Source: a virus. From it: DNA of 40,884 nucleotides. The stretch lies in UHGV virus genome UHGV-2008032; one strand, given 5' to 3'. Shown piece after piece: positions 1 to 23,034 of the stretch (its first letter is position 1; each line of letters starts with the position of its first letter). The translations under genes and the position numbers were made by a program. Under the pieces are notes generated by a model. The model worked only from the letters and a program-made list of their open reading frames with translations. It had not been told where the DNA came from and searched no databases.

Positions 1-641
1 CAGCCGAAACCGACGCAGAGCTGCGCATTCGGCAGGGGCAAAGCGTCGCGCTACCATCGATCACACCGTTTGAAGGTGTCGACGGTGCAATAGCTAACGT
101 TGCTGGCGTGACACGTCACAAGCTGTATGAGAACGACACGGGGGCAACCGACAGCAACGGGCTGCCGCCGCACTCAATTTCCGCCATCGTCGATGGTGGG
201 GATGTTACCGAAATAGCCCAGACCATCAGGGGGAATAAAGGGCAGGGAACGGCAACCTACGGGACAACTTCTGTCACGGTGCCGGATACTTACGGTAATC
301 CTCACGTCATCAGTTTTTCACGCTCTACCGATGTGCCAATTTTCGTAGCCATTACCCTGAAAGTTTTTACCGGGTATACCTCTCAAATCGGCGAGCAGAT
401 CAAACAGGCTGTTGCCGACTATATTAACGGCCTGACAATTGGCGACGACGTTCTGCTGAGCCGTATTTATTCCCCGGCAAACCTTGGTGTTGTGAGCGGC
501 GGTAATGCCCGATATTACGACATTCAGGAGCTGCTCATCGGCAAATCCTCTGACTCAGTCGCAAGCGGAAATATCGATATTGCTTATGACGAATCTGCGT
601 CATGCGTTGCGAGTCACGTCACTATCACGGTGACCTCATGA
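1..641 (+). CDS. Baseplate J-like protein, C-terminal part (5' truncated by window start)
   Basis: Frame open from position 3 with no start codon; stop TGA 639-641; sits before gpI-like, fibre and Tfa genes as in P2 V-W-J-I-H-G. Confidence 0.6.
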   Translation, partial: AETDAELRIRQGQSVALPSITPFEGVDGAIANVAGVTRHKLYENDTGATDSNGLPPHSISAIVDGGDVTEIAQTIRGNKGQGTATYGTTSVTVPDTYGNPHVISFSRSTDVPIFVAITLKVFTGYTSQIGEQIKQAVADYINGLTIGDDVLLSRIYSPANLGVVSGGNARYYDIQELLIGKSSDSVASGNIDIAYDESASCVASHVTITVTS

Positions 642-1318
642 GCAAATACACCGAACTGATCACTAACTACCATGCTACCAAGCCACTCTTTTTTGACCAT
701 ATAGATCTGAGCACCCGCCCGCTGATTGATGTGTCCAGCACTATGTCAGGGCTTATAACAGCCTTCGATATCGATACTGCTGTCGGTGTACAGCTCGACA
801 TCCTCGGTCTGTGGATCGGACGCAGTCGCATAGTCAGCCAGCCAATTAGCGGAGTTTATTTCAGCTGGGACACTGACGGGCTTGGGTATGACCAGGGCAT
901 CTGGCAAGGGCCATATGATCCTGATTCTGGCTATACGACGCTAAGCGATGAGACGTACCGCATCATTCTGAAAGCGAAAATCGCTATCAACAACTGGGAC
1001 GGTCGGAACGACTCTCTGCCTCCCATCCTTGACGCTGCTACCGCAGGCTCAGGCCTGAGGATGCAGATCGTCGACAACCAGGACATGACGATTTCGGTCT
1101 GGGTTTTCCCTGAAACTGATATTTCTGATGTGTCTCTCGAACTGATCGCCGCTATCAAACAGGGCTATCTCACCGTTAAATCAGCTGGCGTATGGGCCGG
1201 TGATGTTGAAACGCCTTCGGTAGAAACACCGTCAGAAGGCTCTAAATTCTTTGGGTTTGATATGGATAACGAATACATCGGCGGGCTCGATGTTGGAGCA
1301 TGGGGGACTTTACTCTAA
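638..1318 (+). CDS. Baseplate/tail protein, P2 gpI-like (DUF2313-like)
   Basis: ATG 638 overlaps upstream stop (ATGA); position between J-like and tail fibre genes. Confidence 0.5.
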   Translation: MSKYTELITNYHATKPLFFDHIDLSTRPLIDVSSTMSGLITAFDIDTAVGVQLDILGLWIGRSRIVSQPISGVYFSWDTDGLGYDQGIWQGPYDPDSGYTTLSDETYRIILKAKIAINNWDGRNDSLPPILDAATAGSGLRMQIVDNQDMTISVWVFPETDISDVSLELIAAIKQGYLTVKSAGVWAGDVETPSVETPSEGSKFFGFDMDNEYIGGLDVGAWGTLL

Positions 1319-2199
1319 TGGCAACAAATAACTTTAAAGCGTTCGCGCTTGATCCTAACGCTAACGTCATGTCACAGGCAGACTGGGAAGCGCTTCCGGC
1401 GCTGCTGTCTGGTTTTACTGCCGGGAAGGCCTCCAGTGCGCAGGTTAACAAGGCGTTGCGGCAGAGCAGTACCATGGCAGCTGTTATCGCGCAATTCATG
1501 GCTGATAAAACAGGACAGGATGTACTGGATAATGGTAACACCAGCCAATTAGAGGCGATATTTGCCAGTGCAATCCAGGGGCGTCTAATCAATGTCCGTG
1601 TGTTTACATCATCCGGGACTTACACGCCAACCAATGGAACAAAGTCGATTATCGTCGAAGTGCAAGGAGGAGGCGGAGGTGGTGGTAATGCCAAGGCCAC
1701 TTCGTCCACCACATATACATTGACCTCATCGGGAGGGGCTGGTGGGTATGCTAAATCCAGACTTACCAATCTTGCCGCCTCTTATTCTGTAACTGTAGGA
1801 GCAGGAGGCGCGGGAGGTGTTTCTGGAGGGCAGTCAGTTTTTGGCTCTATTACATGCGGAGGAGGAGGTGCTGGCAGCCAAATAGGCGGGTCTTATACAG
1901 CATCGAGCAGTGTAGTAACACTTGGCGCATCAGGAGGCGATGCTTCGGGTGGCAATATAGTTAATGTTCCTGGTTCGAGTGCCGATCCGTCACTTTTAAT
2001 CGCTGGCGGGGCTGTGTCTGCTGTTGGTGGAAATTCAGTCATCGGTACTGGTGGGAAAGGTGCCGGTTCTTCTTCTGCTACCGGACTTCCTGGAACACTA
2101 GGCGGCGGTGGTGGTGGTGCTAATGCCGCTGGAAATACTACGTTAATTGCTGGCGGTAAAGGCGGTGACGGTATTGTTATAATTTGGGAGTTTGCATGA
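1318..2199 (+). CDS. Tail fibre protein with glycine-rich C-terminal repeats
   Basis: ATG 1318 overlaps upstream stop (TAATG); N-terminus MATNNFKAFALDPNANV...ASSAQVNKALRQ typical of fibre N-domains; C-terminus rich in GGxGG repeats; followed by Tfa. Confidence 0.6.
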   Translation: MATNNFKAFALDPNANVMSQADWEALPALLSGFTAGKASSAQVNKALRQSSTMAAVIAQFMADKTGQDVLDNGNTSQLEAIFASAIQGRLINVRVFTSSGTYTPTNGTKSIIVEVQGGGGGGGNAKATSSTTYTLTSSGGAGGYAKSRLTNLAASYSVTVGAGGAGGVSGGQSVFGSITCGGGGAGSQIGGSYTASSSVVTLGASGGDASGGNIVNVPGSSADPSLLIAGGAVSAVGGNSVIGTGGKGAGSSSATGLPGTLGGGGGGANAAGNTTLIAGGKGGDGIVIIWEFA

Positions 2200-2594
2200 T
2201 GGCTATTTACGCATTAGTTAAAGACGGCGTTGTAGAAAACACAGTCATCTGGGATGGGGGAGGTGATTTGTTTCCTGACTACCAGGCGGTTGAACTGAAC
2301 GAAAATGAAACCGCTGGTCCGGGATGGACTTATGACGGAACTGAGTTCTATCCTCCAGTTGAACCGGAAAAGAGCCATGAAGAGTTGGTGGTTGAGGCTG
2401 AGCAGCAGAAAGAAGCTTTATTGTCAGAGGCGCAGACAACGATAAGCCTTTGGCAAACTGAACTGCAACTTGGCATCATCAGCGACGAAGATAAGGCAAG
2501 TCTGATCGCGTGGGTTCAGTACATCAAAGCCCTTAAGGCGGTCGACACGTCGAAAGCTCCGGATATCACCTGGCCTGTGCCACCAGCGACTTAA
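2196..2594 (+). CDS. tfa: Tail fibre assembly chaperone (Tfa)
   Basis: ATG 2196 overlaps fibre stop; C-terminal ...LIAWVQYIKALKAVDTSKAPDITWPVPP typical of Tfa proteins. Confidence 0.7.
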   Translation: MMAIYALVKDGVVENTVIWDGGGDLFPDYQAVELNENETAGPGWTYDGTEFYPPVEPEKSHEELVVEAEQQKEALLSEAQTTISLWQTELQLGIISDEDKASLIAWVQYIKALKAVDTSKAPDITWPVPPAT

Positions 2595-2608
2595 TTTCAT
2601 TTTGGCGA

Positions 2609-2623
2609 TGTGCCATATTTGTG
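2609..2623 (+). repeat. Arm-type integrase-binding repeat TGTGCCATATTTGTG (P arm)
   Basis: Exact 15-bp direct repeat of 2827..2841; related TGTGCCATT at 2661..2669; flanks the tRNA-derived core. Confidence 0.5.
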
Positions 2624-2732
2624 TCATACGTGGTAAATCGCCTTTCACTATCTTGCGTCATGTGCCATTGAGTTATGCAATGTGAATGCGGCAATGTACA
2701 TGTAAAACAGTTAGTTAAAAGTGATTCTACTA

Positions 2733-2778
2733 ATTCGTAATGCGAAGGTCGTAGGTTCGACTCCTATTATCGGCACCA
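2733..2778 (+). other. attP-like core: 3' 46 nt of a tRNA-Thr(CGU) gene (anticodon loop through CCA), not an intact tRNA
   Basis: ATTCGTAATGCGAAGGTCGTAGGTTCGACTCCTATTATCGGCACCA folds as anticodon loop TTCGTAA, T-arm GTAGG/TTCGACT/CCTAT and acceptor 3' strand plus CCA; upstream sequence has no acceptor or D-arm; integrase stop lies 15 bp away. Confidence 0.65.
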
Positions 2779-2792
2779 CTAACCACGCGGGT

Positions 2793-3956
2793 TCACGCGA
2801 TATTCACCAGTTCAGCAAAAGCGCCTTGTGCCATATTTGTGCCATTCCCCGCCAGAAATGAGTCGATTTGCATGGCATGCTGCGTCAGGTGATTCGGTGC
2901 CAGATGGGCATAACGCTGTACCATCTCGATACTTTCCCACCCGCCCATTTCCTGTAGCGCACTGAGTGGCACGCCGGACTGTACAAGCCAGCTTGCCCAG
3001 GTGTGCCGCAGGTCATGGAAGCGGAAATTTTCTATTCCCGCCCGCCTTAACGCTGCTCGCCATGCCGTGTTAGCATCAGACCGCATTTTGCGCACTGCCT
3101 TTGTTCTCGTTCCATCCGGGCGAACGGATGATTCAGTGTGAACAAAGACCCACCGGTTATGTTTCCCCAGCTGCTCCCGCAGCACCTTACAGGCCGATTC
3201 GTTCAGGGCGACCCCAATCGCCCTTCCTGCTTTCGCGTCCTCGGGGTGAATCCACGCGACCTTCCTCTGCATATCAATTTGTGACCACTCCAGATCGGTG
3301 ATGTTCGACCTGCGCAGCCCCGTCGCCAGTGCAAAAATAACAACTGGCTTCATATGCTCGGGAAGTTCCCGGATCAGGTTCGCCGCTTCCTCTTTGGTTA
3401 GCCAGCGAATACGCTTATTTTTCGGCACCGGGCATTTGATGTTCGGCGCCTTGGCTATCCATCGCCATTCGTTGGCCGCACATCGTAACAGCGCCCGGAT
3501 GAAAGCAAGGTGCGTCGCCTTCGTCGCCAGCGACGCTGGTTTATCCTTAAATTCAGGAACCGGCTTACCTCTTCGCAGCAGGCTGTCCCGTTTCGCCTCC
3601 CAGTTCATTCGATGTTTGCGATTAACCATCGAACTCACCGCCGACAAGATCCTGTCTTCCGTGATTGCTGACAGGTCCATTCCTTTGAAGTGCATTCTCC
3701 AGAATCCGATCCGGCTTTTGTCATCGTCCAGGCTTTTCTTGTGCTGCTTTTCGTTAAGCCAGCGAACGCACGCTTCATCGAACGTTCTCGGCTTAAACTC
3801 ACCCATCTTATCAACTCGCCATGCTTCAGCTTTCAGCTGATCATAGAGCTCCTGCGCTTGCCTTTTGTCCGTTGTCCCAAGAGACCGTCTAATTCGACTT
3901 CCACCAGGCGTAACGAAGTCGCAGTGCCACGTACCGGCACGTTGTTTGATTGACAT
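2793..3956 (-). CDS. int: Tyrosine integrase
   Basis: 387 aa; N-terminal arm-binding-like domain; C-terminal HDLRHTWAS ... VQRYAHL catalytic motifs; adjacent to att core. Confidence 0.9.
2827..2841 (+). repeat. Arm-type repeat TGTGCCATATTTGTG (P' arm, inside int 3' end), tandem with TGTGCCATT
   Basis: Exact copy of 2609..2623 on the other side of the core. Confidence 0.5.
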
Positions 3957-4180
3957 GCTTTAACCTCCTGCACATCAACCGCATTCACCGCGCTATTGTG
4001 TCTCACAGACTTAAGCGCCGCAATGCAGTCTGACTTGCAAATGCGATATGGGCTTTTAGGTTTATCTGGATTTATCTTTGCGGCCTGAAGTCGTCCACTT
4101 CGTATCCACTGCGTGATAGTGCCTTTGTCTACCTTCAGATACGATGCTGCCTCTTCACGAGTGAAGATTTCTTCTTCCAC
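3833..4180 (-). CDS. xis: Excisionase-like HTH DNA-binding protein
   Basis: GTG start at 4180 with GGAG 6 nt upstream; helix-turn-helix [25 protein letters not shown]; 3' end overlaps int start by about 120 nt. Confidence 0.5.
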
Positions 4181-4267
4181 TTGGAATCTCCATTTATTGA
4201 GTTGGTATTATTGCGGTAGGTCTGGATATCTTGAGAAATGAACAGGCCTCATCGAGTGTGAGGCGGG

Positions 4268-4612
4268 TTAGTCCTTGCGTAGCTCGCTAATTCTTCTGTA
4301 AGTCTCTGGTGCTTTGTTTCCGTGTATCTTCATTTCAGACTTCAACAGAGCAACGAGGGAATCCCATTCGTTGAGGATGCCTTTGAATGCCGGAACGCGC
4401 TTTGCAACCTTGTTGAATGAATCTCTGATTTCTGGAATCTGCTCAACAAGTGCAACGCATCGCCGAAAGTCTGCTGCGTCATGGGGAGCACCGAAGTAAT
4501 GACCATAGATATTCTTTTTCAGTCCACATGCGATTGAGGCAAGAGTTGCGCTACTGATGCCAACATCGCCAGTCGATTGCCATTTCAAAACCTTCATAGC
4601 CAAATCTGACAT
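4268..4612 (-). CDS. Hypothetical early protein
   Basis: Start placed at internal ATG 4612 with GGAGA 6 nt upstream; the longer ORF start at 4639 lies inside a terminator stem. Confidence 0.45.
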   Translation of the reverse strand: MSDLAMKVLKWQSTGDVGISSATLASIACGLKKNIYGHYFGAPHDAADFRRCVALVEQIPEIRDSFNKVAKRVPAFKGILNEWDSLVALLKSEMKIHGNKAPETYRRISELRKD

Positions 4613-4624
4613 TTCTTGTCTCCA

Positions 4625-4646
4625 ATAAAAAACCGCCATCAGGCGG
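4625..4646 (-). terminator. Intrinsic terminator within the leftward operon
   Basis: Stem CCGCC/GGCGG with 4-nt loop followed on the minus strand by a U-run (forward A-run 4625-4632). Confidence 0.4.
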
Positions 4647-4712
4647 CTTGGTGTTCTTTCAGTTATTCAATTCGAATATTGGTTACATTGTTTTCATATA
4701 TGAATAAATAAA

Positions 4713-4892
4713 TTAGCTTTTTTCGTTGCCTTCGCTTTCTTTATTAATTTTAACAAACTCGTTTTTACCACGCTCTCCAAATGCGTCTTTAGAGTCGTTG
4801 TATCCGCAATCGCAGCACACATAATCTCCAGACCATCCACGCATTGTTTTTTCTTTTGCAATATTTCCAGAACCGCATTTTGGACAAGACAT
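4713..4892 (-). CDS. Small zinc-ribbon protein (CxxC...CxxC)
   Basis: ATG 4892 with GGAGG 7 nt upstream; MSCPKCGSG...CCDCGYN cysteine pairs. Confidence 0.5.
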   Translation of the reverse strand: MSCPKCGSGNIAKEKTMRGWSGDYVCCDCGYNDSKDAFGERGKNEFVKINKESEGNEKS

Positions 4893-4988
4893 ATCACTAC
4901 CTCCAAAGCATGAGTGAGATGACAACGTAACATTGATTGGAGATTAACAATAGATTGCTGATGTAAAAGATATGTATAAGCTTCGCTT

Positions 4989-5555
4989 TCAAAGTGGAGG
5001 CTCTGGTAGCGGCATCCAGTGAGTTACGTCATCCAAGATATTTCCTGATAAATACGTGAAAGCTCTATATTTTTTGTAATCAATTGGATTTACAACCCAG
5101 TTCCAATATGCGGCCACGATTTCACCTTGACTAAATGCCAGTAACATTTTGGTTTCTTCCGGCATTCGCTCACTACAGCTTATCCAACCATCCGGAGTTA
5201 CCGGAGAGTTGCCCGATAGCTCGTTCAACTTGTAAGTTTGGCTTACGAGTTCGGCTTCCAGTTCTGCTATGCGCTTTTTTGCTGCTTCCAGCTCGCCAAG
5301 CAGCGCCAAGACGGTAGCCGGATTGGCTGCAGCGATGAATTCAGCATTGGCCTGCTGTTCCATTTGGAAATCTTCATCGAAACCGCTTTCAGGATGCGCT
5401 CCTTCAATTCTGCAAATGGGAAGATATCCAACAACGTCACGATGAATTAGCGCATCATCACAATCAAATCGGCTCTCTCCATATTCGAGCGACCACACCC
5501 CACACGTTGCTTTCTCTGCCGCTTCACGCAGTGCCTGATAGTCAATCTTGCTCAT
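4989..5555 (-). CDS. Ead/Ea22-like protein with C-terminal DUF551-like domain
   Basis: N-terminal ...YQALREAAEKAT...ANAEFIAAANPATVLALLGELEAAKKRIAELE pattern; C-terminal DGWISCSERMPEE...WMPLPEPP. Confidence 0.55.
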   Translation of the reverse strand: MSKIDYQALREAAEKATCGVWSLEYGESRFDCDDALIHRDVVGYLPICRIEGAHPESGFDEDFQMEQQANAEFIAAANPATVLALLGELEAAKKRIAELEAELVSQTYKLNELSGNSPVTPDGWISCSERMPEETKMLLAFSQGEIVAAYWNWVVNPIDYKKYRAFTYLSGNILDDVTHWMPLPEPPL

Positions 5556-5556
5556 G

Positions 5557-5856
5557 TCACATCACCCTGAATCCGTTGCATTTACGTAAGAAATCGCAGA
5601 TATAGCCCTTCATTTTTTCATGCCAATCTCGATCATTCCCATTGCACCACCCATCAGGTGGAGTCCAGTTTTCTATCAGAGCAGCCATTTTCTTTGCTTT
5701 CGCCGGAGTAGCTGTTGCGGTATCGCAGTAATGACGAGTGTCAACAAACTTATCCATGCCATCGATATCAAGTACGCAAAACCATGTGTGATTCGGAATT
5801 CCTACAGGTGGTATTTGTTGCCCACGTCGGCGTTTATCAATGAGATATACACTCAC
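5557..5856 (-). CDS. Hypothetical early protein
   Basis: 99-aa ORF abutting neighbours on the same strand. Confidence 0.4.
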   Translation of the reverse strand: MSVYLIDKRRRGQQIPPVGIPNHTWFCVLDIDGMDKFVDTRHYCDTATATPAKAKKMAALIENWTPPDGWCNGNDRDWHEKMKGYICDFLRKCNGFRVM

Positions 5857-6320
5857 TGGTTACCTCCTTTGCGAAGCTCTGCGGCGAACTCGTTAAGTGA
5901 TATGTAGCAATCTCCAAATGTTAACGAACCGCTCGACTGCATATGCTCCATAGCCATCTCCACGCCCTGCGCCCGTACTTCAGCCAGGAAAGCATCGGTG
6001 GCTGGGGTTTCAGTAACATCATCTTCCCATTCGCTAAACTCCTCACGACAAAAGTCATTAAATTCCTTCTCAGATTGCTTAAGCGAGGTATTTTCAGCAG
6101 CCATCTTCGCGCATTTAGCCTCAAGGTTATCAATCGTGATTCCAGCAGAACGACACTCCCGCAACGCCGTTTCTAGTTTTGATTCAAGTTCACCGAACTT
6201 ACGCACCAGATATTCAGCGTTTGTTTCGTTAACCTTTAAATCTCGGGGGATGCATTTACCTTTCAGAAAACCATCCATCTCAATTAGTGACATTTGTTTC
6301 ATTTCTTCCCACTCCGCCAC
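5853..6320 (-). CDS. Hypothetical early protein (coiled-coil-like)
   Basis: 155-aa ORF in the leftward operon with 4-nt overlap to the downstream gene. Confidence 0.4.
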   Translation of the reverse strand: MAEWEEMKQMSLIEMDGFLKGKCIPRDLKVNETNAEYLVRKFGELESKLETALRECRSAGITIDNLEAKCAKMAAENTSLKQSEKEFNDFCREEFSEWEDDVTETPATDAFLAEVRAQGVEMAMEHMQSSGSLTFGDCYISLNEFAAELRKGGNQ

Positions 6321-6458
6321 ATTGCATTCAGATATTTGTTGTCATTAACAGAACCGAAATATTTCTCTTAAGCAATTCCTCTCTCGATGGCATTGGCTTT
6401 ACGCGTTGGCGAATAATCATTTCTGCCGGAAGAATGCCGGGATTGTATGCAAGTCCTC

Positions 6459-6749
6459 TCATGATTTACTCTCCACGAACTGGTCAACGGCCATGCTAAG
6501 TGACACACCTAAAGTATCGATATGCTGCTGAATATCCTGTAGCGTCCGCGCTTGAGATAACAGAATTTCACGGTTGCATAACTCTTTAACCAGATGCTCA
6601 AACTTGCTGTAATAACCGATACGGCTTAGTGTTTCTTTCCCTGCATTCTCACCTTCTTTGATAATTCCTCTTTCGCTAAGAATCAGGTCGTGTTTGGTTC
6701 CGGTAATAACGTATTTGCCGAGGTCGATGTTTAGCTTCATTGTTTTCAT
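6459..6749 (-). CDS. Hypothetical early protein
   Basis: Start placed at ATG 6749 ([11 protein letters not shown]...) with GAGGAA upstream, just after the stop of the 6760..7056 gene; the longer track ORF would overlap it. Confidence 0.4.
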
Positions 6750-6759
6750 TGTTAATTCC

Positions 6760-7056
6760 TCAGTCATTACTGATAGCGCCATAGCGTGAGCGGTAATTAC
6801 GCAGGCGCGGGTCGATATATTCAGGGAAGTGGGTATATGTGGCTTTGCGGAATGGTCGGATTGATGTCTGGTAAATTCGCTCTCGTTCTTCTTTCTCTGC
6901 AAGCCATATACAGTGGCGAAATTCCTTTTCTTCTTTCGTTTCCTGCGGTAGCGACATTATCCGGTCGTAGTTTTTCCTGAATTTATCCAGCACCTCCGAT
7001 ACGGAATTGCCGGAACAGCGGCGCGCGTCGTCCGCACCATACAGAGGCGCTGGCAT
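6760..7056 (-). CDS. Hypothetical early protein
   Basis: 98-aa ORF in the leftward operon. Confidence 0.4.
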   Translation of the reverse strand: MPAPLYGADDARRCSGNSVSEVLDKFRKNYDRIMSLPQETKEEKEFRHCIWLAEKEERERIYQTSIRPFRKATYTHFPEYIDPRLRNYRSRYGAISND

Positions 7057-7069
7057 GATTTTCTCCTGA

Positions 7070-7585
7070 TTAAATTGCGTGAATAGCGTGACGAGGGAAG
7101 GGGAGGGTTACTGGCGCAAAAGGTATATCGTCGTCAAACTCCATAGGTGGTTCGCTGTGATTTACCTGCTTCTGAGGCTGCTGTTTTTGTTGCTGACCGT
7201 TATTTCGCTGAGGTGAAGACTGTTCATTGCTTCCTTGCTTGCCACCAAGCATTTGCATGGTTCCACCAACGCCCACGATAACTTCGGTAGTGAACCGATC
7301 CTGTCCGCTTTGATCCTGCCATTTTCTTGTCCGCAATTTTCCTTCAAGATAAACCTCAGAGCCTTTTCGCAGATATTCGCTGGCAATTTCTGCCAGTTTC
7401 CCGCTCATTACCACACGGTGCCACTCCGTCTGCTCCTTTTGCTCTCCAGTTTGCTTATCACGCCATTGTTCTGACGTAGCAACTATAAGGTTTGCAAATG
7501 CCGTTCCTGATGGTGAATATCTGATTTCTGGATCATGCCCAAGGCGACCAATAATGATCACCTTATTTACGCCTCTACTTCCCAT
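7070..7585 (-). CDS. ssb: Single-stranded DNA-binding protein
   Basis: OB-fold-like N-terminus, Gly/Gln-rich linker, acidic C-terminal tail DDDIPF. Confidence 0.85.
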
Positions 7586-8293
7586 TTATGCCGCCTGTTT
7601 TAGTTCGTTAACTCTGATGTTCATTACCTGAACGCATTTAGCCTGCGCATCCTCATTGCCAGCCATTAATTGCCAGTCATGCTGATAACGTTCTATGAGT
7701 TTTTTCTTGTCAGTTTCTGTTGATGCATAATCGCTGAAGTCTTTCAGGATTTGTTCGCAGTCAACCGATGGAGATTTCTGGTTGGTATTTTCTGGTGATG
7801 GTTTGTTATCTGATGCTGGGATTGCCCAGCCCGGCAGCGATGGAGGGAGCCAGTAAAATCCTGTTCCATCCTTCAGTTTTGCCCTGTGCCACCCCTGTTT
7901 TTTATCGGGAGATGTTTGTGCGAAACCTTCCTCAAGGTTATACAGATACCGACCGATTCCCCACTGAACGGCAGCGCGCTTCATTGCACCGGAACGACCA
8001 CCTTTGACGGCTTCTACCTGCGTGTTTTCAGCAGCATCCCATTTGGTTACCCATTCGGAATCAATCTTTATTGATATGCCGCATTCAACGCCGCCGTTGT
8101 TGGGAATATCGCGGTATTCATTGCGCCATCCTGCTTTGCCACAAACATCGTCAAGGCGTTTCATGATTGCCCGGTTCGTAACATAAGCCAGCACCATAGC
8201 CCACACCTTGCCATCGCGTGTTTTACCGCTTTGCTGTATTCGCCATTCGATATCTTCAGGGCAGAATGGCTCATCGAATTTGTTCAAATCCAT
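7586..8293 (-). CDS. Single-strand annealing recombinase, Rad52/Sak-like
   Basis: Motifs ...GKAGWRNEY...SGAMKRAAVQWGIGRYLY resemble Rad52-family annealing proteins; immediately upstream of ssb. Confidence 0.55.
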   Translation of the reverse strand: MDLNKFDEPFCPEDIEWRIQQSGKTRDGKVWAMVLAYVTNRAIMKRLDDVCGKAGWRNEYRDIPNNGGVECGISIKIDSEWVTKWDAAENTQVEAVKGGRSGAMKRAAVQWGIGRYLYNLEEGFAQTSPDKKQGWHRAKLKDGTGFYWLPPSLPGWAIPASDNKPSPENTNQKSPSVDCEQILKDFSDYASTETDKKKLIERYQHDWQLMAGNEDAQAKCVQVMNIRVNELKQAA

Positions 8294-8392
8294 AATTCAC
8301 CTCAGAATGGACATGGCCCAAGGAAATAACGCTGGTTTAATACTTCGACTCGGGACAAATTAAGGCATACCCGCATTCCTTCGCGGTCACCA

Positions 8393-8551
8393 TTATGGCG
8401 ATACCAGAGAGCTTTCTGCGTGTACATGCGTCTCTGTAACTTGCTCTCCTTCACTGTGGTTGCAAGTGACATGAATATCTCCTTCGTTACCGATTAATTC
8501 TTTCATCTGACGAATGAATTCTTCGTCTGACCAGTTATCTGTAAAACTCAT
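8393..8551 (-). CDS. Small hypothetical protein (52 aa)
   Basis: Hand-translated; ATG overlaps upstream stop (ATGA); below the ORF-track size cut-off. Confidence 0.3.
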   Translation of the reverse strand: MSFTDNWSDEEFIRQMKELIGNEGDIHVTCNHSEGEQVTETHVHAESSLVSP

Positions 8552-8700
8552 TTCCTGCGATACCACGGAATGTTGATCGCTGATTTCATCGCTTTATTTG
8601 CTTCAAGCCACATTTTGGAATCACCAATAAATCTGGCTATTACTGCTTTGTTCTGTGCAGCACGAAGCATCTGGTGATTGATGGCTATTTCATTGCGCAT
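8548..8700 (-). CDS. Small hypothetical protein (50 aa)
   Basis: Hand-translated; GGAGG upstream; stop overlaps next start (ATGA). Confidence 0.3.
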   Translation of the reverse strand: MRNEIAINHQMLRAAQNKAVIARFIGDSKMWLEANKAMKSAINIPWYRRK

Positions 8701-8819
8701 AACGCCTCCAGTTGTTTCTTTGCTGCTCTGATTAATTGTTTAACTCGGCGTGATAATTCAGATTCGTGCGGGTAGAAAGCGGACATGACGCCGCTACCCG
8801 CGAGCTGAAAGTGCATCAT
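8685..8819 (-). CDS. Small hypothetical protein (44 aa)
   Basis: Hand-translated; AGGAG 6 nt upstream of ATG. Confidence 0.3.
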   Translation of the reverse strand: MMHFQLAGSGVMSAFYPHESELSRRVKQLIRAAKKQLEALCAMK

Positions 8820-8902
8820 GGGTAACTCCTTATATTTGATTGCATAACGAAAACGCCTCGAGTGAAGCGTTATTGGTATGCGGTAAAGCCGCGCTCAGGC
8901 GG

Positions 8903-9151
8903 CTACTCTATTTCTTCTTCGAATGATTTTATTAGTCGGTCAATAACATCATCCGTTTCAATATCATTTCCGTCTGATTGCTTTAATACATCTATTGATT
9001 CTGCAGCGGTAAATTCCATCGCTGTGAGAAACTCGACAATTGCACACTCAACGACATATCGTTCTTCATCTGTACGACATGAGATAAAAGAGCATTTAAT
9101 TGCTGTTATTACTTTTTGTTTAAGCTCTGCAGGGTAATCAGTTTTTATCAT
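8903..9151 (-). CDS. Small acidic early protein (82 aa)
   Basis: Strongly acidic C-terminal half (...DGNDIETDDVIDRLIKSFEEEIE); first gene after a leftward terminator. Confidence 0.5.
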   Translation of the reverse strand: MIKTDYPAELKQKVITAIKCSFISCRTDEERYVVECAIVEFLTAMEFTAAESIDVLKQSDGNDIETDDVIDRLIKSFEEEIE

Positions 9152-9163
9152 CGTTTACTCCGT

Positions 9164-9193
9164 CAAAAAAATTGCCCTCACATTAGAGGGCAA
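9164..9193 (-). terminator. Intrinsic terminator in the leftward operon
   Basis: 8-bp stem TTGCCCTC/GAGGGCAA followed on the minus strand by an 8-nt U-run. Confidence 0.6.
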
Positions 9194-9408
9194 AGAAGAT
9201 TTCCAATAATCAGAACAAGTCGGCTCCTGTTTAGTTACGAGCGACATTGCTCCGTGTATTCACTCGTTGGAATGAATACACAGTGCTGTGTTTATTCTGT
9301 TATTTATGCCAAAAATAAAGGCCACTATCAGGCAGCTTTGTTGTTCTATTAACCAAGTTCTCTGGCAATCATTGCCGTCGTTCGTATTGCCCACACCATT
9401 GATTCTTA

Positions 9409-9495
9409 TCAATAGTCGTAGTCATACGGATAGTCCTGGTATTGTTCCATCACATCCTGCGGATGCTCTTCGAACTCTTCAAATTCTTCTTCCAT
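9409..9495 (-). CDS. Very acidic micro-protein (28 aa, MEEEFEEFEEHPQDVMEQYQDYPYDYDY)
   Basis: Hand-translated; GAGGTG 4 nt upstream of ATG. Confidence 0.3.
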   Translation of the reverse strand: MEEEFEEFEEHPQDVMEQYQDYPYDYDY

Positions 9496-9557
9496 ATCTC
9501 ACCTCAAATAAGTGGTTTGCTGCCAAAACAATGAACCATCCGGAAATTCCAGATAGT

Positions 9558-9785
9558 TCATAATTCACTCTTCAATACTTCCAACTTACTAATCGCCGAT
9601 AGATATCCGCGCTGATAGGGCATCATCATTCCTTCGAGCTTGCCACTTCTTAACTCCTCCCTGAGCAATTGTATTGCTTGATCAATAACCTCTGCCTTAG
9701 CGTCCTTTATGGCTTGCTTGCGGGGCTTTGCTTTCTGCTTTGGCAGATTTCTCAAGCATGATGGAATGTATGTCTGATTCATCAC
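9558..9785 (-). CDS. Hypothetical early protein downstream of N-like gene
   Basis: 75-aa ORF abutting the stop of 9786..10058. Confidence 0.4.
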   Translation of the reverse strand: MMNQTYIPSCLRNLPKQKAKPRKQAIKDAKAEVIDQAIQLLREELRSGKLEGMMMPYQRGYLSAISKLEVLKSEL

Positions 9786-10058
9786 TTACCTGGCTGTCAG
9801 TTGTTTTGATTTCCGGTAGCCTGCCGAGTAAATGGCTACGTTTGGCAGGCAAATACTTCCACTGCATTCTTCTGCCTTCTTGCAGCGAAGGCTTCCTAGT
9901 GATGCTGCTTTATCTGCTCTGACGCAACCAGAGAGCTTTAGCGCAATTTTTCGTGACAATCGCTGTTCTTGCATTGCCTGTTCACGTTGAGCCTGTCTGC
10001 GTGCTCTGCGGCGATTTCTGGCGTTATCGTCAGCCAGATATGTAATGACTACTGTCAT
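9786..10058 (-). CDS. N-like antitermination protein (arginine-rich motif)
   Basis: N-terminal NARNRRRARRQAQREQ arginine-rich motif; first gene downstream of PL and nutL, the position of lambda N. Confidence 0.5.
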   Translation of the reverse strand: MTVVITYLADDNARNRRRARRQAQREQAMQEQRLSRKIALKLSGCVRADKAASLGSLRCKKAEECSGSICLPNVAIYSAGYRKSKQLTAR

Positions 10059-10165
10059 GTTGACCTCCGATGATTGACTTTGGCGGTGACGCGCCGGGTG
10101 CTTATCTTCCGGTTGCCGTCGTGCAGCTGCACTTCACGTCACCCCAAAGCCAACTACTCTTTGGT

Positions 10166-10207
10166 TCCCGCATTTCGGCGGGACAATCCCATCAATGTTA
10201 AAGAGCC
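10166..10207 (-). promoter_or_regulatory. nutL (boxA GGCTCTTTAACA + boxB hairpin)
   Basis: Minus-strand boxA then 6-bp boxB stem TCCCGC/GCGGGA with loop CGAAAT, identical to the boxB at 11396..11415. Confidence 0.65.
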
Positions 10208-10252
10208 TGCCAATCTGTTCCGTTTGGCTACCAGCTTCCTGCTGATGGCTAG

Positions 10253-10281
10253 ATAATCACAAATTGTGGTCGTACTGTCAA
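10253..10281 (-). promoter_or_regulatory. PL candidate promoter (TTGACA-17-GATTAT)
   Basis: Minus-strand -35 at 10281..10276 and -10 at 10258..10253, overlapped by operator sites. Confidence 0.55.
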
Positions 10282-10316
10282 CACGAAATGTGATTGTTTT
10301 TATCACAACCCGTGTT
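10256..10316. promoter_or_regulatory. OL operator cluster (three 15-bp sites, consensus ATCACA-N3-YGTGKT)
   Basis: Sites at 10256..10270, 10281..10295 (reverse) and 10302..10316; same motif as the OR sites. Confidence 0.55.
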
Positions 10317-10357
10317 TACATTGATTTTAAAGGTAATTTAATTTTCTTTGGGCAACA

Positions 10358-10380
10358 AAAAACCCGCCGAAGCGGGTTTG
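10358..10380 (-). terminator. Terminator downstream of cI (U-rich on both strands)
   Basis: Stem AAACCCGC/GCGGGTTT with loop CGAA; U-run follows on the minus strand, 23 nt past the cI stop. Confidence 0.65.
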
Positions 10381-10402
10381 ATGTTTTTAAGTGGCGGGTA
10401 TA

Positions 10403-11044
10403 TCAGGAGAATTTCATCATCATCTGCACTGCTACGCCGATTATCTTGCAGTTGCCGTCGATTGGGATCAACGGATAGGCAGGGTTAAGCCCTTTCAGGT
10501 ATTTGTTACCGCCATCAATGATTAGCTTCTTGAACGTGGCTTCATTAGCATCTGTCAGCTTCGCAACTACCAGGCTTCCATTAACGGCTTCCTTTCCAGT
10601 GTCGAACAGAACCAGCATACCCTCAGGAACGCTAAGGCCGGTAGGAGCTGTCATTGAGTCGCCCTGAACCCTGAGCCAGAAGGCGTCACCGACAACGTGA
10701 CAATCTGATTCATACCACTCATCCACTGCCTGAGGGTTGTACGGCTCTACGGCCTCACTCCATGCACCTGCGCTAACCCAGCTAATCAACGGAAACTTTT
10801 CCCCTGGCTTGTATTGTCCCTGATAGTTGTCGCCAAAAAGCAGTTCTGCCGGAGCGACACCCAAAGCTTTAGCTATTACCTCTGCGTCATCAACACTAAC
10901 GCTTCTGGTTCCTGATTCATAGTTGCCGATCCGAGATTGTGAAGCCCAGCCGCAAAGCTCCGCAAGAGCCTTCTGTGTAAGCCCTTTATCTTCCCGTAAT
11001 CGCTTGATACGCGCGGCGATAGTTTCTGTTCTGTTCATGCGCAT
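10403..11044 (-). CDS. cI: CI-like repressor (HTH plus LexA-like S24 autopeptidase)
   Basis: N-terminal XRE-type HTH; C-terminal GDSM serine and downstream lysine; divergent from cro; -10-like TATAAA abuts the ATG, so the mRNA may be leaderless. Confidence 0.85.
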   Translation of the reverse strand: MRMNRTETIAARIKRLREDKGLTQKALAELCGWASQSRIGNYESGTRSVSVDDAEVIAKALGVAPAELLFGDNYQGQYKPGEKFPLISWVSAGAWSEAVEPYNPQAVDEWYESDCHVVGDAFWLRVQGDSMTAPTGLSVPEGMLVLFDTGKEAVNGSLVVAKLTDANEATFKKLIIDGGNKYLKGLNPAYPLIPIDGNCKIIGVAVQMMMKFS

Positions 11045-11049
11045 TTTAT

Positions 11050-11111
11050 ATCACATTCCGTGGTTTAAGGCTTTACACGATTTGTGTTGACTATCAATCA
11101 CAATGTGTGTT
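11050..11111. promoter_or_regulatory. OR operator cluster (three sites) with PR
   Basis: Sites at 11050..11064, 11075..11089 (reverse) and 11097..11111; PR -35 TTGACT 11087..11092, -10 about 11110..11116; cro ATG at 11149. Confidence 0.55.
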
Positions 11112-11148
11112 TAATAAAGACTGAGTGAACTAGCTCTTAAGGAAACCT

Positions 11149-11364
11149 ATGAACAACATTGCCAACGAACGGAAAAAGCTTGGCATCACTCAATCTGCGT
11201 TAGCAGGCGCGTGTGGCTGGAACCAGTCCCGCTTAGCTAACTACGAGTCAGGTATCCGGACTCCAGATTTAGAGTCGTGCCGTAGCCTGGTAAAGGCGCT
11301 GAATAAATTGGGGAGCAAGACAACGCTAGATGGCTTGTTCCCGCCGCGTAAGAACGCCGCATAA
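11149..11364 (+). CDS. cro: Cro-like HTH repressor
   Basis: 71 aa, XRE-type HTH; SD AAGGA; divergent from cI. Confidence 0.75.
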   Translation: MNNIANERKKLGITQSALAGACGWNQSRLANYESGIRTPDLESCRSLVKALNKLGSKTTLDGLFPPRKNAA

Positions 11365-11370
11365 GCAAAT

Positions 11371-11415
11371 TGCTCTTTAACAGTCATGGTCCTCATTCCC
11401 GCCGAAATGCGGGAA
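11371..11415 (+). promoter_or_regulatory. nutR (boxA TGCTCTTTAACA + boxB hairpin)
   Basis: boxA 11371..11382; boxB stem TTCCCGC/GCGGGAA with loop CGAAAT at 11396..11415; near-identical to nutL. Confidence 0.65.
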
Positions 11416-11472
11416 TACAACGCGCATAAGTTGATGCGCATAACTTCTTATTTGTTAAGGAAATACTTACAT

Positions 11473-11751
11473 ATGGAACTTACAAGTACTCGCAAGAAAG
11501 CGAATGCAATTACAAGCAACATCCTAAATCGAATTGCTGTACGTGGTCAGCGAAAGGTTGCCGACGCGTTAGGGATTAATGAATCGCAAATTTCGCGATG
11601 GAAAGACAGCTTCATCCCCAAAATGGGAATGCTTCTTGCTGTTCTTGAATGGGGTGTTGAAGACGAGGAGTTGGCGGAACTGGCTAAGAAAGTAGCCAGA
11701 ATGCTGACAAAAGAAAAAGCCCCGAAGAACGGCGAATTCTTCGAGGCCTGA
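11473..11751 (+). CDS. cII: CII-like transcriptional activator
   Basis: ...[26 protein letters not shown]... matches the lambda CII helix-turn-helix region as recalled; start could instead be ATG 11434. Confidence 0.65.
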
Positions 11752-11785
11752 TGTAGAAAGACTGGATCAATCCACAGGAGTCATT

Positions 11786-11932
11786 ATGACAAAACAACTC
11801 AGTCCTTACCAGGACAAAATTCACAAACACATACTACGTGATCGCTTCCTGTCCAGCTTCAAGCAGCCTGGTCGATTCCGGGCTGAGTTGGAAAAAGTGA
11901 AGCTGATGCAGAAGGAGAAAGGTCATGAGTAA
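11786..11932 (+). CDS. Small hypothetical protein (48 aa) overlapping the O-like start
   Basis: Hand-translated; AGGAG 5 nt upstream of ATG; 8-nt overlap with the next gene. Confidence 0.3.
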
Positions 11933-12824
11933 CATATCTAATCTAGCCGAAGCCAGAGAGGCCAGAAGGCTACAACAACCGCATCAAAGCAGCGGTAAGG
12001 GGTATGCCTTGCTGCACCGTAAAATTATGGATGTGCCGTTTTACAAGGACGCAGAAGCTGCGCATCTGTGGGTTCACTTAATCCTCAAAGCAAAGCATAC
12101 GCCTGAGTATGTAATGACTGACGCAGGAGAAATTCTGGTAGGCAGAGGGAAGCTACTTGGCGGTAGAAACTCTCTGGCGTTTGAAACAGGACTCAAACCA
12201 GATCGCGTTCAGTACCTGCTTAGAAAGTTCAAAAAACTCGGCATGATTGACTGGGTTTCACACGGTAAATTCTCAGTTTTCTCGGTAGAGAAATATGACG
12301 ATTATCAGTCAAATTTTGTACCAGCAGATTACCAGCAAATTACCACCTCAAAGCCAGCAATACCAATGCCTGCAAGCAATACTGTACCAGCAGATTACCA
12401 GCAAATTACCACAGATAAAGAATATAATAATATTATCTCTAATACTGACGTATTAGAGAGTACCGCAGCAGACAAAAAGTCTGACAAGAAAAAACCTTCC
12501 GTTAGCTGTCAGGATGTTGTCGATGCTTACCACGAAATCCTTCCTGAAGCGCCAAGAATCCGCGCACTGAATGACAAGCGTAAAAACCAGATCCGAACGT
12601 TCTGGCGCAAAGCCGGAGTGATAACCCGCCAGCTTGACGGGCATGGGTTCACGATGCAGGACTGGAGAAATTATTTGAGCTACGTAGGCGAAAATTGCCG
12701 ATGGATGTTCGAAGAGCGTCCAAACCATCAACGCGGAACTGTCTGGCACAAAAAGGGATTTGATTTCCTGCTTAACGATAATACCTACCTGAAAGTTCGT
12801 GAGGGTGAACACGATGACCGATAA
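11925..12824 (+). CDS. Replication initiator, lambda O-like, with internal origin iterons
   Basis: Position after cII and before the helicase; contains direct repeats and an AT-rich block as lambda ori does inside O. Confidence 0.6.
12317..12412 (+). repeat. Origin-like iterons: two perfect 30-bp direct repeats TGTACCAGCAGATTACCAGCAAATTACCAC
   Basis: Copies at 12317..12346 and 12383..12412, each with two ATTACCA sub-repeats; AT-rich stretch 12413..12460 follows. Confidence 0.6.
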
Positions 12825-14250
12825 TTTTTATGCGCCGCCCCATAGCATCGAGGCAGAGCAGGCGGTGATTGGTGGATTGCTTCTGGATGATGACAGCAGT
12901 GAGCGCGTCCAGAAAGTTCTGGCGATGCTGAAGCCTGATTCATTTTACAGCCGACCACACAAAATCATTTTCGAAGAAATAACCAGAATGCACCGTGAGC
13001 AAAAGCCAGTAGATGGCCTGACGCTTTTCGATGAACTGGAGCGTAAATCGTTAACTGTGTCTGTTGGCGGTTTTGCTTATATAGCTGAGATCGCAAAGAA
13101 CACGCCAAGCGCCGCAAACATCGTTGCCTATGCAATGCAGGTTCGCGAAACCGCAATGGAACGCTACGCCATCAACCGCATGACTGAAGCGACGGAATTG
13201 CTCTATTCCCGCAACGGAATGACTGCGACGCAGAAGTACGAAGCTATTCAGTCGATTTTCACGCAACTGACAGACCATGCAAAAACCGGATCGCGTCGCG
13301 GCCTTCGCTCATTTGGTGAGGTTATGGAAGACTGGGTTAGCGACCTTGAGAAGCGATTTGACCCGTCAGGCGAACAACGAGGAATGAGCACAGGGATCCC
13401 ATCGCTGGACAGGATGCTGTCACCGAAAGGTCTGGTGAAAGGCTCTCTGTTTGTCATTGGCGCTCGCCCTAAGATGGGGAAAACGACGCTATACAGCCAG
13501 ATGGCAATCAACTGCGCAGTGCATGAGAAAAAGCCCGCTCTGATGTTCAGCCTTGAAATGCCCGGTGACCAGATACTGGAAAAACTGGTAGGACAGAAGT
13601 CAGGTGTTAACCCGAATATTTTTTACCTTCCGGCGACAAATGACGCTGATGACGGCTATCAGGGTGATTACGATGGTGACTTCAACAGGGCGATCGAAAC
13701 AGCCAATCGCTTGAGTGAAATCGACCTGCTTTACATCGACGACACGCCGGGATTATCTCTGGCTCAAATAGTCAGCGAAAGTCGTCGAATCAAGCGAGAA
13801 AAAGGATGTGTTGGCATGATTCTGGTCGATTACCTGACACTAATGACTGCTGAGAAGGCCGATCGCAACGACCTTGCTTACGGCATGATCACCAAAGGAC
13901 TGAAGAACCTTGCCAAAGAGCTTGATTGCGTTGTTGTGCTTCTGACGCAGCTTAACCGCGCACTGGAAAGCAGAACCAATAAACGCCCATTACCAAGTGA
14001 CTCACGAGATACAGGGCAGATTGAACAGGATTGCGATTATTGGGTGGGGATCCATCGTGAAGGTGCTTTTGATGACAGTGTTCCACCTGGTGAAACCGAA
14101 CTAATCCTTCGTCTCAATCGTCATGGCAATACCGGCACGGTGTATTGCATTCAGGCAAATGGCTCTATTTATGACACAGACCAACAGTCCGCTGAAATGC
14201 GCCGCCGTGAACGCGAGGAACCGCAATCCAAGAAGAAAGGAGGATTCTGA
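12814..14250 (+). CDS. Replicative DNA helicase, DnaB family
   Basis: Walker A GARPKMGKTT; DnaB-like N-terminal domain; ATG 12814 overlaps the upstream stop. Confidence 0.85.
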   Translation: MTDNFYAPPHSIEAEQAVIGGLLLDDDSSERVQKVLAMLKPDSFYSRPHKIIFEEITRMHREQKPVDGLTLFDELERKSLTVSVGGFAYIAEIAKNTPSAANIVAYAMQVRETAMERYAINRMTEATELLYSRNGMTATQKYEAIQSIFTQLTDHAKTGSRRGLRSFGEVMEDWVSDLEKRFDPSGEQRGMSTGIPSLDRMLSPKGLVKGSLFVIGARPKMGKTTLYSQMAINCAVHEKKPALMFSLEMPGDQILEKLVGQKSGVNPNIFYLPATNDADDGYQGDYDGDFNRAIETANRLSEIDLLYIDDTPGLSLAQIVSESRRIKREKGCVGMILVDYLTLMTAEKADRNDLAYGMITKGLKNLAKELDCVVVLLTQLNRALESRTNKRPLPSDSRDTGQIEQDCDYWVGIHREGAFDDSVPPGETELILRLNRHGNTGTVYCIQANGSIYDTDQQSAEMRRREREEPQSKKKGGF

Positions 14251-14334
14251 TGACCATCTACATCACTGAGCTAATAACAGGGGCTATTTACACAGTAGCC
14301 CTTTTTTATTGGATTAAGAACGAGGGGGATCCTG

Positions 14335-14547
14335 ATGGACACCGTTAACGGAATGTGTTCAGACGCACCGCGTGCCAAAAAATGTAAATGCGGAAAATCA
14401 CCGACAATATTCGACATGGAGAACGGGTGCCAAATCTACTGCGCTAACCACGCTGCTGTGGCGGCCGCGAATTATCGCAGTGCGGTAACGGAGTGGAATA
14501 ACCTGAAATCTGTTAGAGAGGGAAGTCATGAAAAAACTAACCTTTGA
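14335..14547 (+). CDS. Small cysteine-rich hypothetical protein
   Basis: 70 aa; GAGGGG upstream of ATG; CKCG...CQIYC pattern. Confidence 0.4.
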   Translation: MDTVNGMCSDAPRAKKCKCGKSPTIFDMENGCQIYCANHAAVAAANYRSAVTEWNNLKSVREGSHEKTNL

Positions 14548-14968
14548 AATTCGATCTCCGGCGCATCAGCAAAACGCTATTCACGCAGTACAGCAAATCC
14601 TTCCAGATCCAACCAAGCCAATCGTAGTGATCATTCAGGAGCGCAACCGTAGCTTAGACCAAAACAGGAAGCTATGGGCCTGCTTAGGTGACGTCTCTCG
14701 TCAGGTTGAATGGCATGGTCGCTGGCTGGATGCAGAAAGCTGGAAGTGTGTGTTTACCGCAGCATTAAAGCAGCAGGACGTTGTTCCTAACCTTGCCGGG
14801 AATGGCTTTGTGGTAATAGGCCAGTCAACCAGCAGGATGCGTGTAAGCGAATTTGCGGAGCTATTAGAGCTTATACAGGCATTCGGTACAGAGCGTGGCG
14901 TTAAGTGGTCAGACGAAGCGCGACTGGCTCTCGAATGGAAAGCGCGATGGGGAGACAGGGCGGCATGA
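14528..14968 (+). CDS. ninB: NinB recombination protein
   Basis: Sequence closely matches lambda NinB as I recall it ([28 protein letters not shown]...). Confidence 0.8.
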
Positions 14969-15147
14969 GACGACAGCGACGAAGTATCACCGACATAATC
15001 TGCGAAAACTGCAAATACCTTCCAACGAAACGCTCCAGAAATAAACGCAAGCCAATCCCGAAAGAATCTGACGTAAAAACCTTCAACTACACGGCTCACC
15101 TGTGGGATATCCGGTGGCTTAGAGAACGTGCGAGGAAAACAAGGTGA
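14965..15147 (+). CDS. ninE: NinE-like protein
   Basis: 60 aa; ATG overlaps the ninB stop (ATGA); resembles lambda NinE. Confidence 0.55.
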
Positions 15148-15314
15148 TTGACCAAAATCGAAGTTACGAACAAGGAAGTGTCGAGCGAGCTTTAACGTGC
15201 GCTAATTGCGGTCAAAAGCTGCATTTTCTGGAAGTTCACGTGTGCTCCGATTGCTGCGCAGAACTGATGAGCGATCCGAATAGCTCAATGTGCGAGGAAG
15301 AAGACGATGAATGA
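15144..15314 (+). CDS. ninF: NinF-like small zinc-binding protein
   Basis: Hand-translated 56 aa; GTG overlaps the ninE stop; ...[22 protein letters not shown]... resembles lambda NinF. Confidence 0.5.
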
Positions 15315-16681: not shown

Positions 16682-16863
16682 ACGCCACAATTCAAACGAT
16701 ACCAGAGCTTCTTATCCAGACACGAGGCAATCAGACCGAAGTGGCGAGGATGCTTTCCTGTGCAAGAGGAACAGTGCTCAAGTACAACCGAGACAGCAAA
16801 GGTGAGCGTCACGTAATAGTTAACGGCGTCCTGATGGTAACGCCAGGCAAAAAGGGAAGATGA
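16678..16863 (+). CDS. ninH: NinH-like small DNA-binding protein
   Basis: ...YGNQTEVARMLSCARGTVLKY... matches the lambda NinH pattern. Confidence 0.6.
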   Translation: MNATIQTIPELLIQTRGNQTEVARMLSCARGTVLKYNRDSKGERHVIVNGVLMVTPGKKGR

Positions 16864-17388: not shown

Positions 17389-17398
17389 TAGAAGGTAA

Positions 17399-23033: not shown

Positions 23034-23034
23034 T

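Follow-up and report, generated by a model that had tools for sequence, protein, structure and literature searches.

A glycine-rich tail fibre of probable Pam3 gp24 type and its neighbouring chaperone in a temperate enterobacterial phage

The tail fibre of cyanophage Pam3, gp24, is a trimer in which an N-terminal helical domain docked onto the baseplate wedge is followed by a tumour necrosis factor (TNF)-like sandwich and a distal glycine-rich domain (PMC9608196, PMC9942802). In the latter, hydrogen bonds of the main chain hold 12 motifs together as a lattice of four layers, and the tips of gp24 vary more toward their distal end, where contact with the receptor has been proposed (PMC9608196, PMC9942802). 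Its chaperone, gp25, trimerizes through a helical C-domain (PMC9608196), and the wedge subunit that bears the fibres is gp23 (PMC9942802). An enterobacterial fibre of matching architecture, TFP_Y of Klebsiella phage vB_KpnM_SCNJ1-Y (SCNJ1-Y; OQ689083, 297 amino acids), recognizes lipopolysaccharide (LPS) and gates DNA ejection, with host-range mutations in its glycine-rich domain (PMC12671077). Here we describe the tail fibre gene (1318..2199, plus strand) of the virus genome UHGV-2008032, a stretch of 40,884 nucleotides (nt) that we refer to throughout as the window. The encoded protein is very probably a Pam3 gp24-type tail fibre, simplified to a single protein, that serves as the phage's receptor-binding protein, with the gene for its chaperone beside it.

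The open reading frame (ORF) is intact and encodes 293 amino acids, beginning MATNNFKAF and ending in GGKGGDGIVIIWEFA. Its ATG at 1318 overlaps the stop codon of the upstream gene (TAATG), and its TGA stop at 2197-2199 shares bases with the start codon of the gene that follows (ATGATG). Starting instead from an ATG at 1300 would lengthen the protein by six residues, though most homologs start MATNNFK. The protein falls in the PHROG tail-fibre families 863, 11303 and 6202, and a database search found its closest relative, 99% identical, in E. coli, labelled 'hypothetical protein' (P0001). An earlier sequence-only reading had placed the gene at these coordinates and called its product a short tail fibre; both statements hold, since the start and stop codons fall where expected and the gene lies after two wedge genes (Baseplate_J and DUF2612) and before the gene of a tail fibre assembly chaperone (Tfa) of the Caudo_TAP family. 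No second fibre or tailspike gene was seen in the closed 40.9-kilobase (kb) genome, so that 1318..2199 is the sole fibre gene found.

Homology of the fibre and its chaperone to Pam3 gp24 and gp25

The glycine-rich part of the fibre belongs to a curated protein family. Pfam PF21722 (Gly_rich_2) matches residues 98-289 at 37.2 bits, against a cut-off of 24.3, over model positions 2-223 of 226, and the same precomputed domain is present in most fibre homologs. A Pfam scan of the fibre at E up to 1 returned nothing besides PF21722, and NCBIfam held no model for the fibre, for Tfa or for the wedge protein. A profile built from 88 full-length fibre relatives (A1), which served both the search of the PDB and the AlphaFold2 prediction, recovered the Pam3 fibre from the PDB (7ypx_A, E 1.7e-7; 7yfw_a, E 6.7e-7). 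The match begins at residue 79, takes in the neck motif GRL..V and reaches as far as the C-terminal G.GIvIv.EY strand; the N-terminus of the window fibre is without sequence similarity to that of gp24.

Structure prediction points to the same relative. The AlphaFold2 model of the fibre monomer has an overall predicted local distance difference test (pLDDT) score of 83.9, with block means of 83-98 (most above 88) over residues 90-293. It contains about 13 beta strands in the glycine-rich part, where the glycine motifs themselves are predicted as neither helix nor strand, and two N-terminal helices (residues 40-65 and 75-85) with low monomer pLDDT values of 46-76. A Foldseek search of the PDB with this model gave the Pam3 fibre 7ypx_A as the best match (E 4.5e-10, probability 1.0, template modelling (TM) scores 0.54/0.62). 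Next came glycine-rich tail-tip proteins of mycobacteriophage Bxb1, and no further match was significant among the 50 best of the 69 with E up to 10.

Three other folds were considered and rejected. The longest run of G-X-Y in the fibre is two triplets, which rules against a collagen-like fibre. The glycine-rich domain of ALK/LTK (PF12810), whose resemblance has been reported solely via Pam3 gp24 (PMC9608196), gave no Pfam match, and no ALK/LTK chain occurs among the best 50 of 69 Foldseek matches. For the gp38 adhesin of T-even phages there was no sequence match in the PDB, its structure 6F45 is not in the best 50 of 69 Foldseek matches, and the window holds no gp37-like shaft gene.

Glycine accounts for 21% of the whole fibre protein and for 29% of residues 99-293 (57/195). 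The fraction is 32.5% from the first to the last glycine motif and peaks at 40-47% in 30-residue windows. The background is far lower, with a median of 6.3% over the 106 stretches in the window that run for 100 or more amino acids without a stop, and the next-richest 195-residue stretch anywhere in the window reaches 15%. The sequence-only reading was thus right that the distal two-thirds of the protein is glycine-rich, and too high in putting the content at about 40 percent. Thirteen short motifs were counted, among them GGGGGGG, GGAGG, GAGGAGG, GGGGAG, GTGGKGAG, GGGGGG, GGKGGDG and several GG. Because the gene contains no tandem DNA repeat, uses all four glycine codons and shows no collagen-type G-X-Y periodicity, the bias is an evolved feature of the protein rather than a product of replication slippage or a collagen-like repeat.

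The next gene encodes Tfa (2196..2594, plus strand, starting at 2196 or 2199; 131-132 amino acids), which matches PF02413 (Caudo_TAP) at 94.8 bits against a cut-off of 22.1. Its C-terminus (residues 62-130) matches Mu TfaU (5yvq_B, E 3.6e-6). The AlphaFold2 model of Tfa (pLDDT 85.7) has strands within residues 2-33 and helices at 60-90 and 96-113, and the sole significant fold match found for it in the PDB by Foldseek is the Pam3 chaperone gp25 (7ypx chain a, E 5.9e-4, probability 1.0). Both partners from the window therefore match both partners of one solved complex, 7ypx_A for the fibre and 7ypx_a for Tfa, which bears out the pairing of the fibre with the Tfa encoded directly downstream that the earlier reading had assumed.

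The beta-rich N-domain of Tfa (residues 1-56, nt ~2199-2366) is specific to glycine-rich tips; the helical C-terminus is the generic Caudo_TAP part. We collected 80 loci from IMG/VR that share the N-terminal domain of the window fibre, of which 74 could be scored (65 with glycine-rich tips and nine with other tips). The ORF following the fibre opens with a homolog of Tfa residues 1-56 in 61/65 loci with glycine-rich tips and in 0/9 loci with other tips, counts that are descriptive only, since the loci include many near-identical prophages and are not independent. Several of the other-tip fibres are nonetheless followed by a Tfa whose C-terminus is closely similar, with identity reaching 79%. 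Roughly half of the 61 ORFs consist of the N-domain alone (57-78 amino acids); the domain is found both by itself and joined to a helical tail of the Caudo_TAP kind. Such a stand-alone mini-chaperone ORF lies directly 3' of the fibre gene in, for example, loci L006, L007, L017, L035, L058 and L084. No Pfam family covers the Tfa N-domain, which falls in PHROG 14370, annotated as 'unknown function'.

The likeness to Pam3 gp24/gp25 (PDB 7YPX, 7YFW; PMC9608196, PMC9942802) extends to the arrangement of domains and genes. Both fibres combine N-terminal helices (predicted in the window fibre), a TNF-like sandwich and a glycine-rich domain in proteins of similar length (280-289 amino acids in the Pam3 case, 293 here), with about 12 glycine motifs in gp24 and 13 in the window sequence. 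In each genome the fibre gene follows the wedge genes in the same order, with the chaperone gene immediately downstream, and the fibre is the only type carried by a small contractile-tailed phage. The two systems differ in that the N-terminal domain of the window fibre is unrelated in sequence and free of cysteines, the glycine content is 29-32%, lower than the 39% cited for Pam3 when only its 125-residue glycine-rich domain is counted, the window chaperone ends in an enterobacterial Caudo_TAP (Mu U/lambda Tfa) type of C-terminus, and the window phage is temperate and infects Enterobacterales.

TFP_Y is closer in host and sequence. Also an enterobacterial myovirus fibre, it shares 36% identity with the window fibre over residues 70-222 (BLASTP E 9e-8) and 31% over 221 profile-aligned columns, and its gene is likewise preceded by a DUF2612 homolog. 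Its N-terminal 60 residues are unrelated to those of the window fibre, and its phage is a lytic Jedunavirus of 50 kb.

Several observations weigh against assigning the fibre to the Pam3 gp24 type. Identity to gp24 is only about 22-24%; a single-sequence phmmer search of the PDB returned nothing even at E 10, and only the profile reached Pam3. The TM scores are moderate, in part owing to differently placed N-terminal helices. The AlphaFold2 model is that of a monomer, and the polyglycine-type packing and the distal placing of the variable residues would be borrowed from Pam3. The only cysteine of the fibre is C180, and because Pam3 anchors its fibre by disulfides through N-terminal cysteines, of which residues 1-87 contain none, attachment must differ between the two phages. 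The interdependence of the loci counted above belongs with these points.

By analogy with the Pam3 structures, three fibre chains would join through the N-terminal helical domain (residues 1-87; 1318..1578, plus strand), which would plug into the DUF2612/Baseplate_J wedge. Residues 88-293 (1579..2196, plus strand), the putative receptor-binding tip, would fold into a TNF-like beta-sandwich with interstrand loops extended as about 12 glycine-rich motifs. These motifs would pack side by side through main-chain hydrogen bonds, an arrangement that would require glycine because it leaves no room for a side chain, and the short non-glycine segments at the loop turns would make up a hypervariable distal surface that touches the host receptor. 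Folding would depend on the adjacent chaperone, whose N-domain of about 56 residues may grip the flank of the TNF-like/glycine-rich body and whose helical C-terminus may trimerize and so gather the three chains. Tip and chaperone would travel between phages as one cassette, bringing about changes in host range.

Exchange of the tip and chaperone between phages

Comparison with related genomes places breakpoints on either side of the tip and its chaperone. The nearest sequenced phage is Citrobacter phage Omnitron, which shares 92% identity over the structural half of the genome. DNA homology to Omnitron runs through nt 1502, inside the fibre N-terminal domain, and resumes at nt 2609. The window block 1503-2608 is replaced in Omnitron (L086, CP115737, 36500-41923) by a serine invertase and two tips, one a Gp53-like_C tip with its Tfa and the other a Collar-domain tip with an inverted Tfa. 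The fibre N-terminal domain (residues 1-87), predicted to be helical, is conserved across fibres with different tips: it shares 62-78% identity with Klebsiella, Yersinia, Salmonella and Citrobacter phage fibres that bear other tips, and it is conserved among fibres encoded beside DUF2612 genes.

Conversely, the window tip recurs on a different N-terminus. The segment 1591..2580 (plus strand), which comprises fibre residues 92-293 and nearly all of Tfa, is found at 85.7% DNA identity in three lambdoid side-fibre loci (L002-L004; breakpoints from blastn against L003). At the protein level, fibre residues 88-293 share 85% identity with the lambdoid locus, and Tfa shares 91%. In these loci the tip is joined to an unrelated 168-residue N-terminus downstream of a lambda-J-type tail-tip gene, and beside it (L003, 2485-4963) are a Tfa and a Gp53-like_C tip, both inverted, as well as a serine invertase with Resolvase/HTH_7 domains. 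Hand alignment revealed a hix/gix-like core, AAACCTTGGTTT, ten codons 5' of the tip at the junction of constant and variable parts, and a degenerate partner of AAACCTTGGTTT at the start of the inverted tip; an automatic inverted-repeat search of L003 gave no convincing crossover sites.

From this gene layout, L002-L004 look like a host-range switch of the Mu G/e14 P type that uses a Gly_rich_2 tip, with inversion as the probable mode of switching. As in the Mu G, P1 C and e14 P segments, the tip and Tfa of L002-L004 are one cassette of an opposed pair, each a tip with its chaperone, next to a serine invertase, and Omnitron has that layout on the window fibre's own N-terminus. The window phage differs in having no invertase and no second tip, so that its glycine-rich tip is fixed.

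A more compact unit can be imagined. The glycine-rich tip and a mini-chaperone of about 56 residues may form a minimal, self-contained receptor-binding cassette that is mobile among baseplate fibres, lambdoid side fibres and invertase-switched segments, a proposal that we put forward tentatively. What is new in these comparisons is so only mildly: the stand-alone mini-chaperone, and the use of a glycine-rich tip as one arm of invertase-switched fibre segments.

The glycine-rich tip and its candidate receptor

Of all parts of the fibre, the glycine-rich C-terminus is the likeliest to bind the receptor, as the earlier reading had proposed. Homology to Pam3 gp24, the swapping of the cassette, its use as an alternative tip in invertible segments, and the host-range mutations of TFP_Y all argue for it, and so does the pattern of variation. 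Fibre residues 1-87 have a mean column entropy of 1.04. Across the family the columns of glycine show little or no variation, the stretch 186-260 is hypervariable, and insertions concentrate after residues 166 and 231. The two substitutions in TFP_Y that restored infection of an LPS mutant (PMC12671077) fall in corresponding places: T169 (T169I) lies in the insertion after window residue 166, and S209 (S209G) aligns with window G206, both between glycine motifs.

Our best guess for the receptor, by analogy with TFP_Y (31-36% identical), would be LPS. The receptor of TFP_Y cannot simply be transferred to the window fibre because the loops between the glycine motifs differ; with identity at only 31-36%, neither LPS nor a protein receptor can be read from the sequence. 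The fibre could instead bind an outer-membrane protein, as the gp38 adhesins of T-even phages do. Those adhesins follow the same design of conserved glycine motifs framing hypervariable loops, and in Salmonella phage S16 (PDB 6F45) the motifs form a polyglycine-type lattice that presents the loops (PMC9608196, PMC9942802). Binding of OmpC and other outer-membrane proteins is reported for gp38 of the S16/PP01 type (PMC12892980, PMC12032242). S16 gp38 differs from the window fibre in being a monomer that caps a gp37 fibre, in having a beta-helix rather than a TNF-like sandwich as its middle domain, and in arranging 10 motifs in three layers; nor is it among the best 50 of the 69 Foldseek matches. 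The sole characterized relative of closely similar architecture, TFP_Y, recognizes LPS (PMC12671077). We therefore consider an outer-membrane-protein receptor rather unlikely, if still a serious candidate.

A different division of labour would make the glycine-rich domain a mere rigid scaffold and Tfa the adhesin, retained on the fibre tip in the virion and in contact with the receptor. Retention on the fibre does occur in this class, in T2-type gp38 and, reportedly, in Mu Tfa. The Caudo_TAP C-terminus of the window protein is related to Mu TfaU, and its N-domain co-varies strictly with the tip and so clearly contacts it. In Pam3, however, the chaperone covers the distal loops, and its departure before virion maturation has been argued (PMC9608196). 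About half of the related glycine-rich fibres, moreover, have just the mini-chaperone of 57-78 residues, and recombinant TFP_Y alone blocked LPS-triggered DNA ejection, with the host-range mutations in the fibre itself (PMC12671077). Receptor contact through Tfa is thus improbable.

Next to no credence attaches to a reading of the glycine-rich part as a spacer, whether disordered and of low complexity or collagen-like, or as a depolymerase or LPS-modifying enzyme: its composition is strongly biased, the BLAST low-complexity filter masks it, and the authors of the TFP_Y study left 'binding or catalysis' open (PMC12671077), but the region is predicted with high confidence to contain its ~13 beta strands, matches an ordered solved structure, lacks G-X-Y periodicity and DNA tandem repeats, and shows no enzyme family in Pfam, PHROGs or NCBIfam and no enzyme fold better than E 0.4.

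Together, these comparisons favour the view that the fibre binds its receptor through a Pam3 gp24-type tip. The glycine-rich fibre is a further member of a known receptor-binding fold with a solved structure, and an ordinary host-range module.

Baseplate context and distribution of the fibre

The local gene order is Baseplate_J (40320..641), DUF2612 (602-1318), the fibre, the Caudo_TAP chaperone (2196-2594), a gap of about 200 nt, and an integrase (2793-3956, minus strand). The Baseplate_J frame runs off the 3' end of the window and continues in frame at position 1, and because it crosses this junction the window is a complete, circularly permuted 40,884-base-pair temperate phage genome rather than a fragment. 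The 5' part of this wedge gene occupies 40320..40884 and the 3' part 1..641 (both plus strand; phrog_6 baseplate wedge, with PF04865 detected in L005, described below); the Omnitron homolog is one ORF of 399 amino acids. The baseplate wedge protein at 602..1318 (plus strand) matches PF11041 (DUF2612/Phage_Wedge1, E 6e-45; named Phage_Wedge1 in the gene table of L005) and by its position would correspond to Pam3 gp23.

Contractile-tail genes in the window include those for sheath, tube, tape measure, hub, spike and a gp25-like sheath initiator. A near-identical prophage in an E. coli draft genome (L005; 96.9% DNA identity over window 1-2750) encodes baseplate proteins that carry the Pfam domains Dit_like, Pam3_gp18, Apex, Sheath_initiator, Baseplate_J and Phage_Wedge1. 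The baseplate order of Dit_like, Pam3_gp18, hub, Apex spike, Sheath_initiator, Baseplate_J, Phage_Wedge1, fibre and chaperone parallels the Pam3 parts list from gp17 to gp25 (PMC9942802, PMC9608196). A Pam3_gp18-like plug joins wedge, fibre and chaperone in a baseplate module that as a whole resembles the minimal one of Pam3.

Further features were noted in the window. The plug gene lies at 36962-37267 (plus strand); its counterpart in L005 (818-1123) matches Pfam Pam3_gp18, the baseplate 'plug'. The tape measure protein (34324-36339, plus strand) has a C-terminal lytic transglycosylase (SLT) domain at about residues 500-630. The stretch at ~2600-2792, between Tfa and the integrase, is the probable attP region. 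Homology to the integrated prophage L005 ends at window position 2750, and the Omnitron record begins at window position 2735. In DNA the integrase is about 82% identical to those of HK/mEp lambdoid phages that have a thrW-type attachment site annotated in their records. Across the whole window, ARAGORN found no tRNA gene and no Rfam family reached its gathering threshold.

A database search returned more than 3,800 relatives of the fibre, mostly proteins of about 300 amino acids from Enterobacterales prophages. When residues 88-293 were searched against 1.84 billion cluster representatives at 50% identity, 3,896 matches passed an E threshold of 1e-3 and 703 of them one of 1e-10, with the domain nearly always at the extreme C-terminus of proteins of 210-735 amino acids. 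In predicted viral structures, Foldseek detected 247 matches with E no higher than 1e-3; fibres from phage Goslar and from Xanthomonas phage FoX6 are among them, as are a protein of cyanophage syn9 and giant-virus proteins rich in glycine. Among 5,426 complete E. coli genomes, megablast matched one, and there only over the first 137 nt; the 99%-identical protein occurs in draft assemblies. A tblastn search of phage genomes aligned only residues 1-115 and is uninformative on the frequency of the tip, since the low-complexity filter masks the glycine-rich part.

With a curated Pfam family, thousands of members, a solved structure and one studied enterobacterial relative, the fibre is neither unusually glycine-rich nor the unusual host-range determinant that the sequence-only reading took it for, and it opens no new question in phage biology. 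Its value is mainly for annotation. Thousands of prophage proteins now labelled 'hypothetical' or 'glycine-rich domain-containing', in E. coli, Enterobacter, Klebsiella, Hafnia and others, become readable as Pam3 gp24-type fibres, each paired with its own chaperone. For predicting host range and for fibre-swap engineering, useful landmarks are the boundaries of the cassette (from fibre residue ~88-92 to the end of Tfa) and the variable loops (after residue 166 and at residues 186-260). If it is true that the mini-domain alone folds the tip, no portable host-range module of enterobacterial phages would be smaller than this pair, which would make a convenient building block for engineering.

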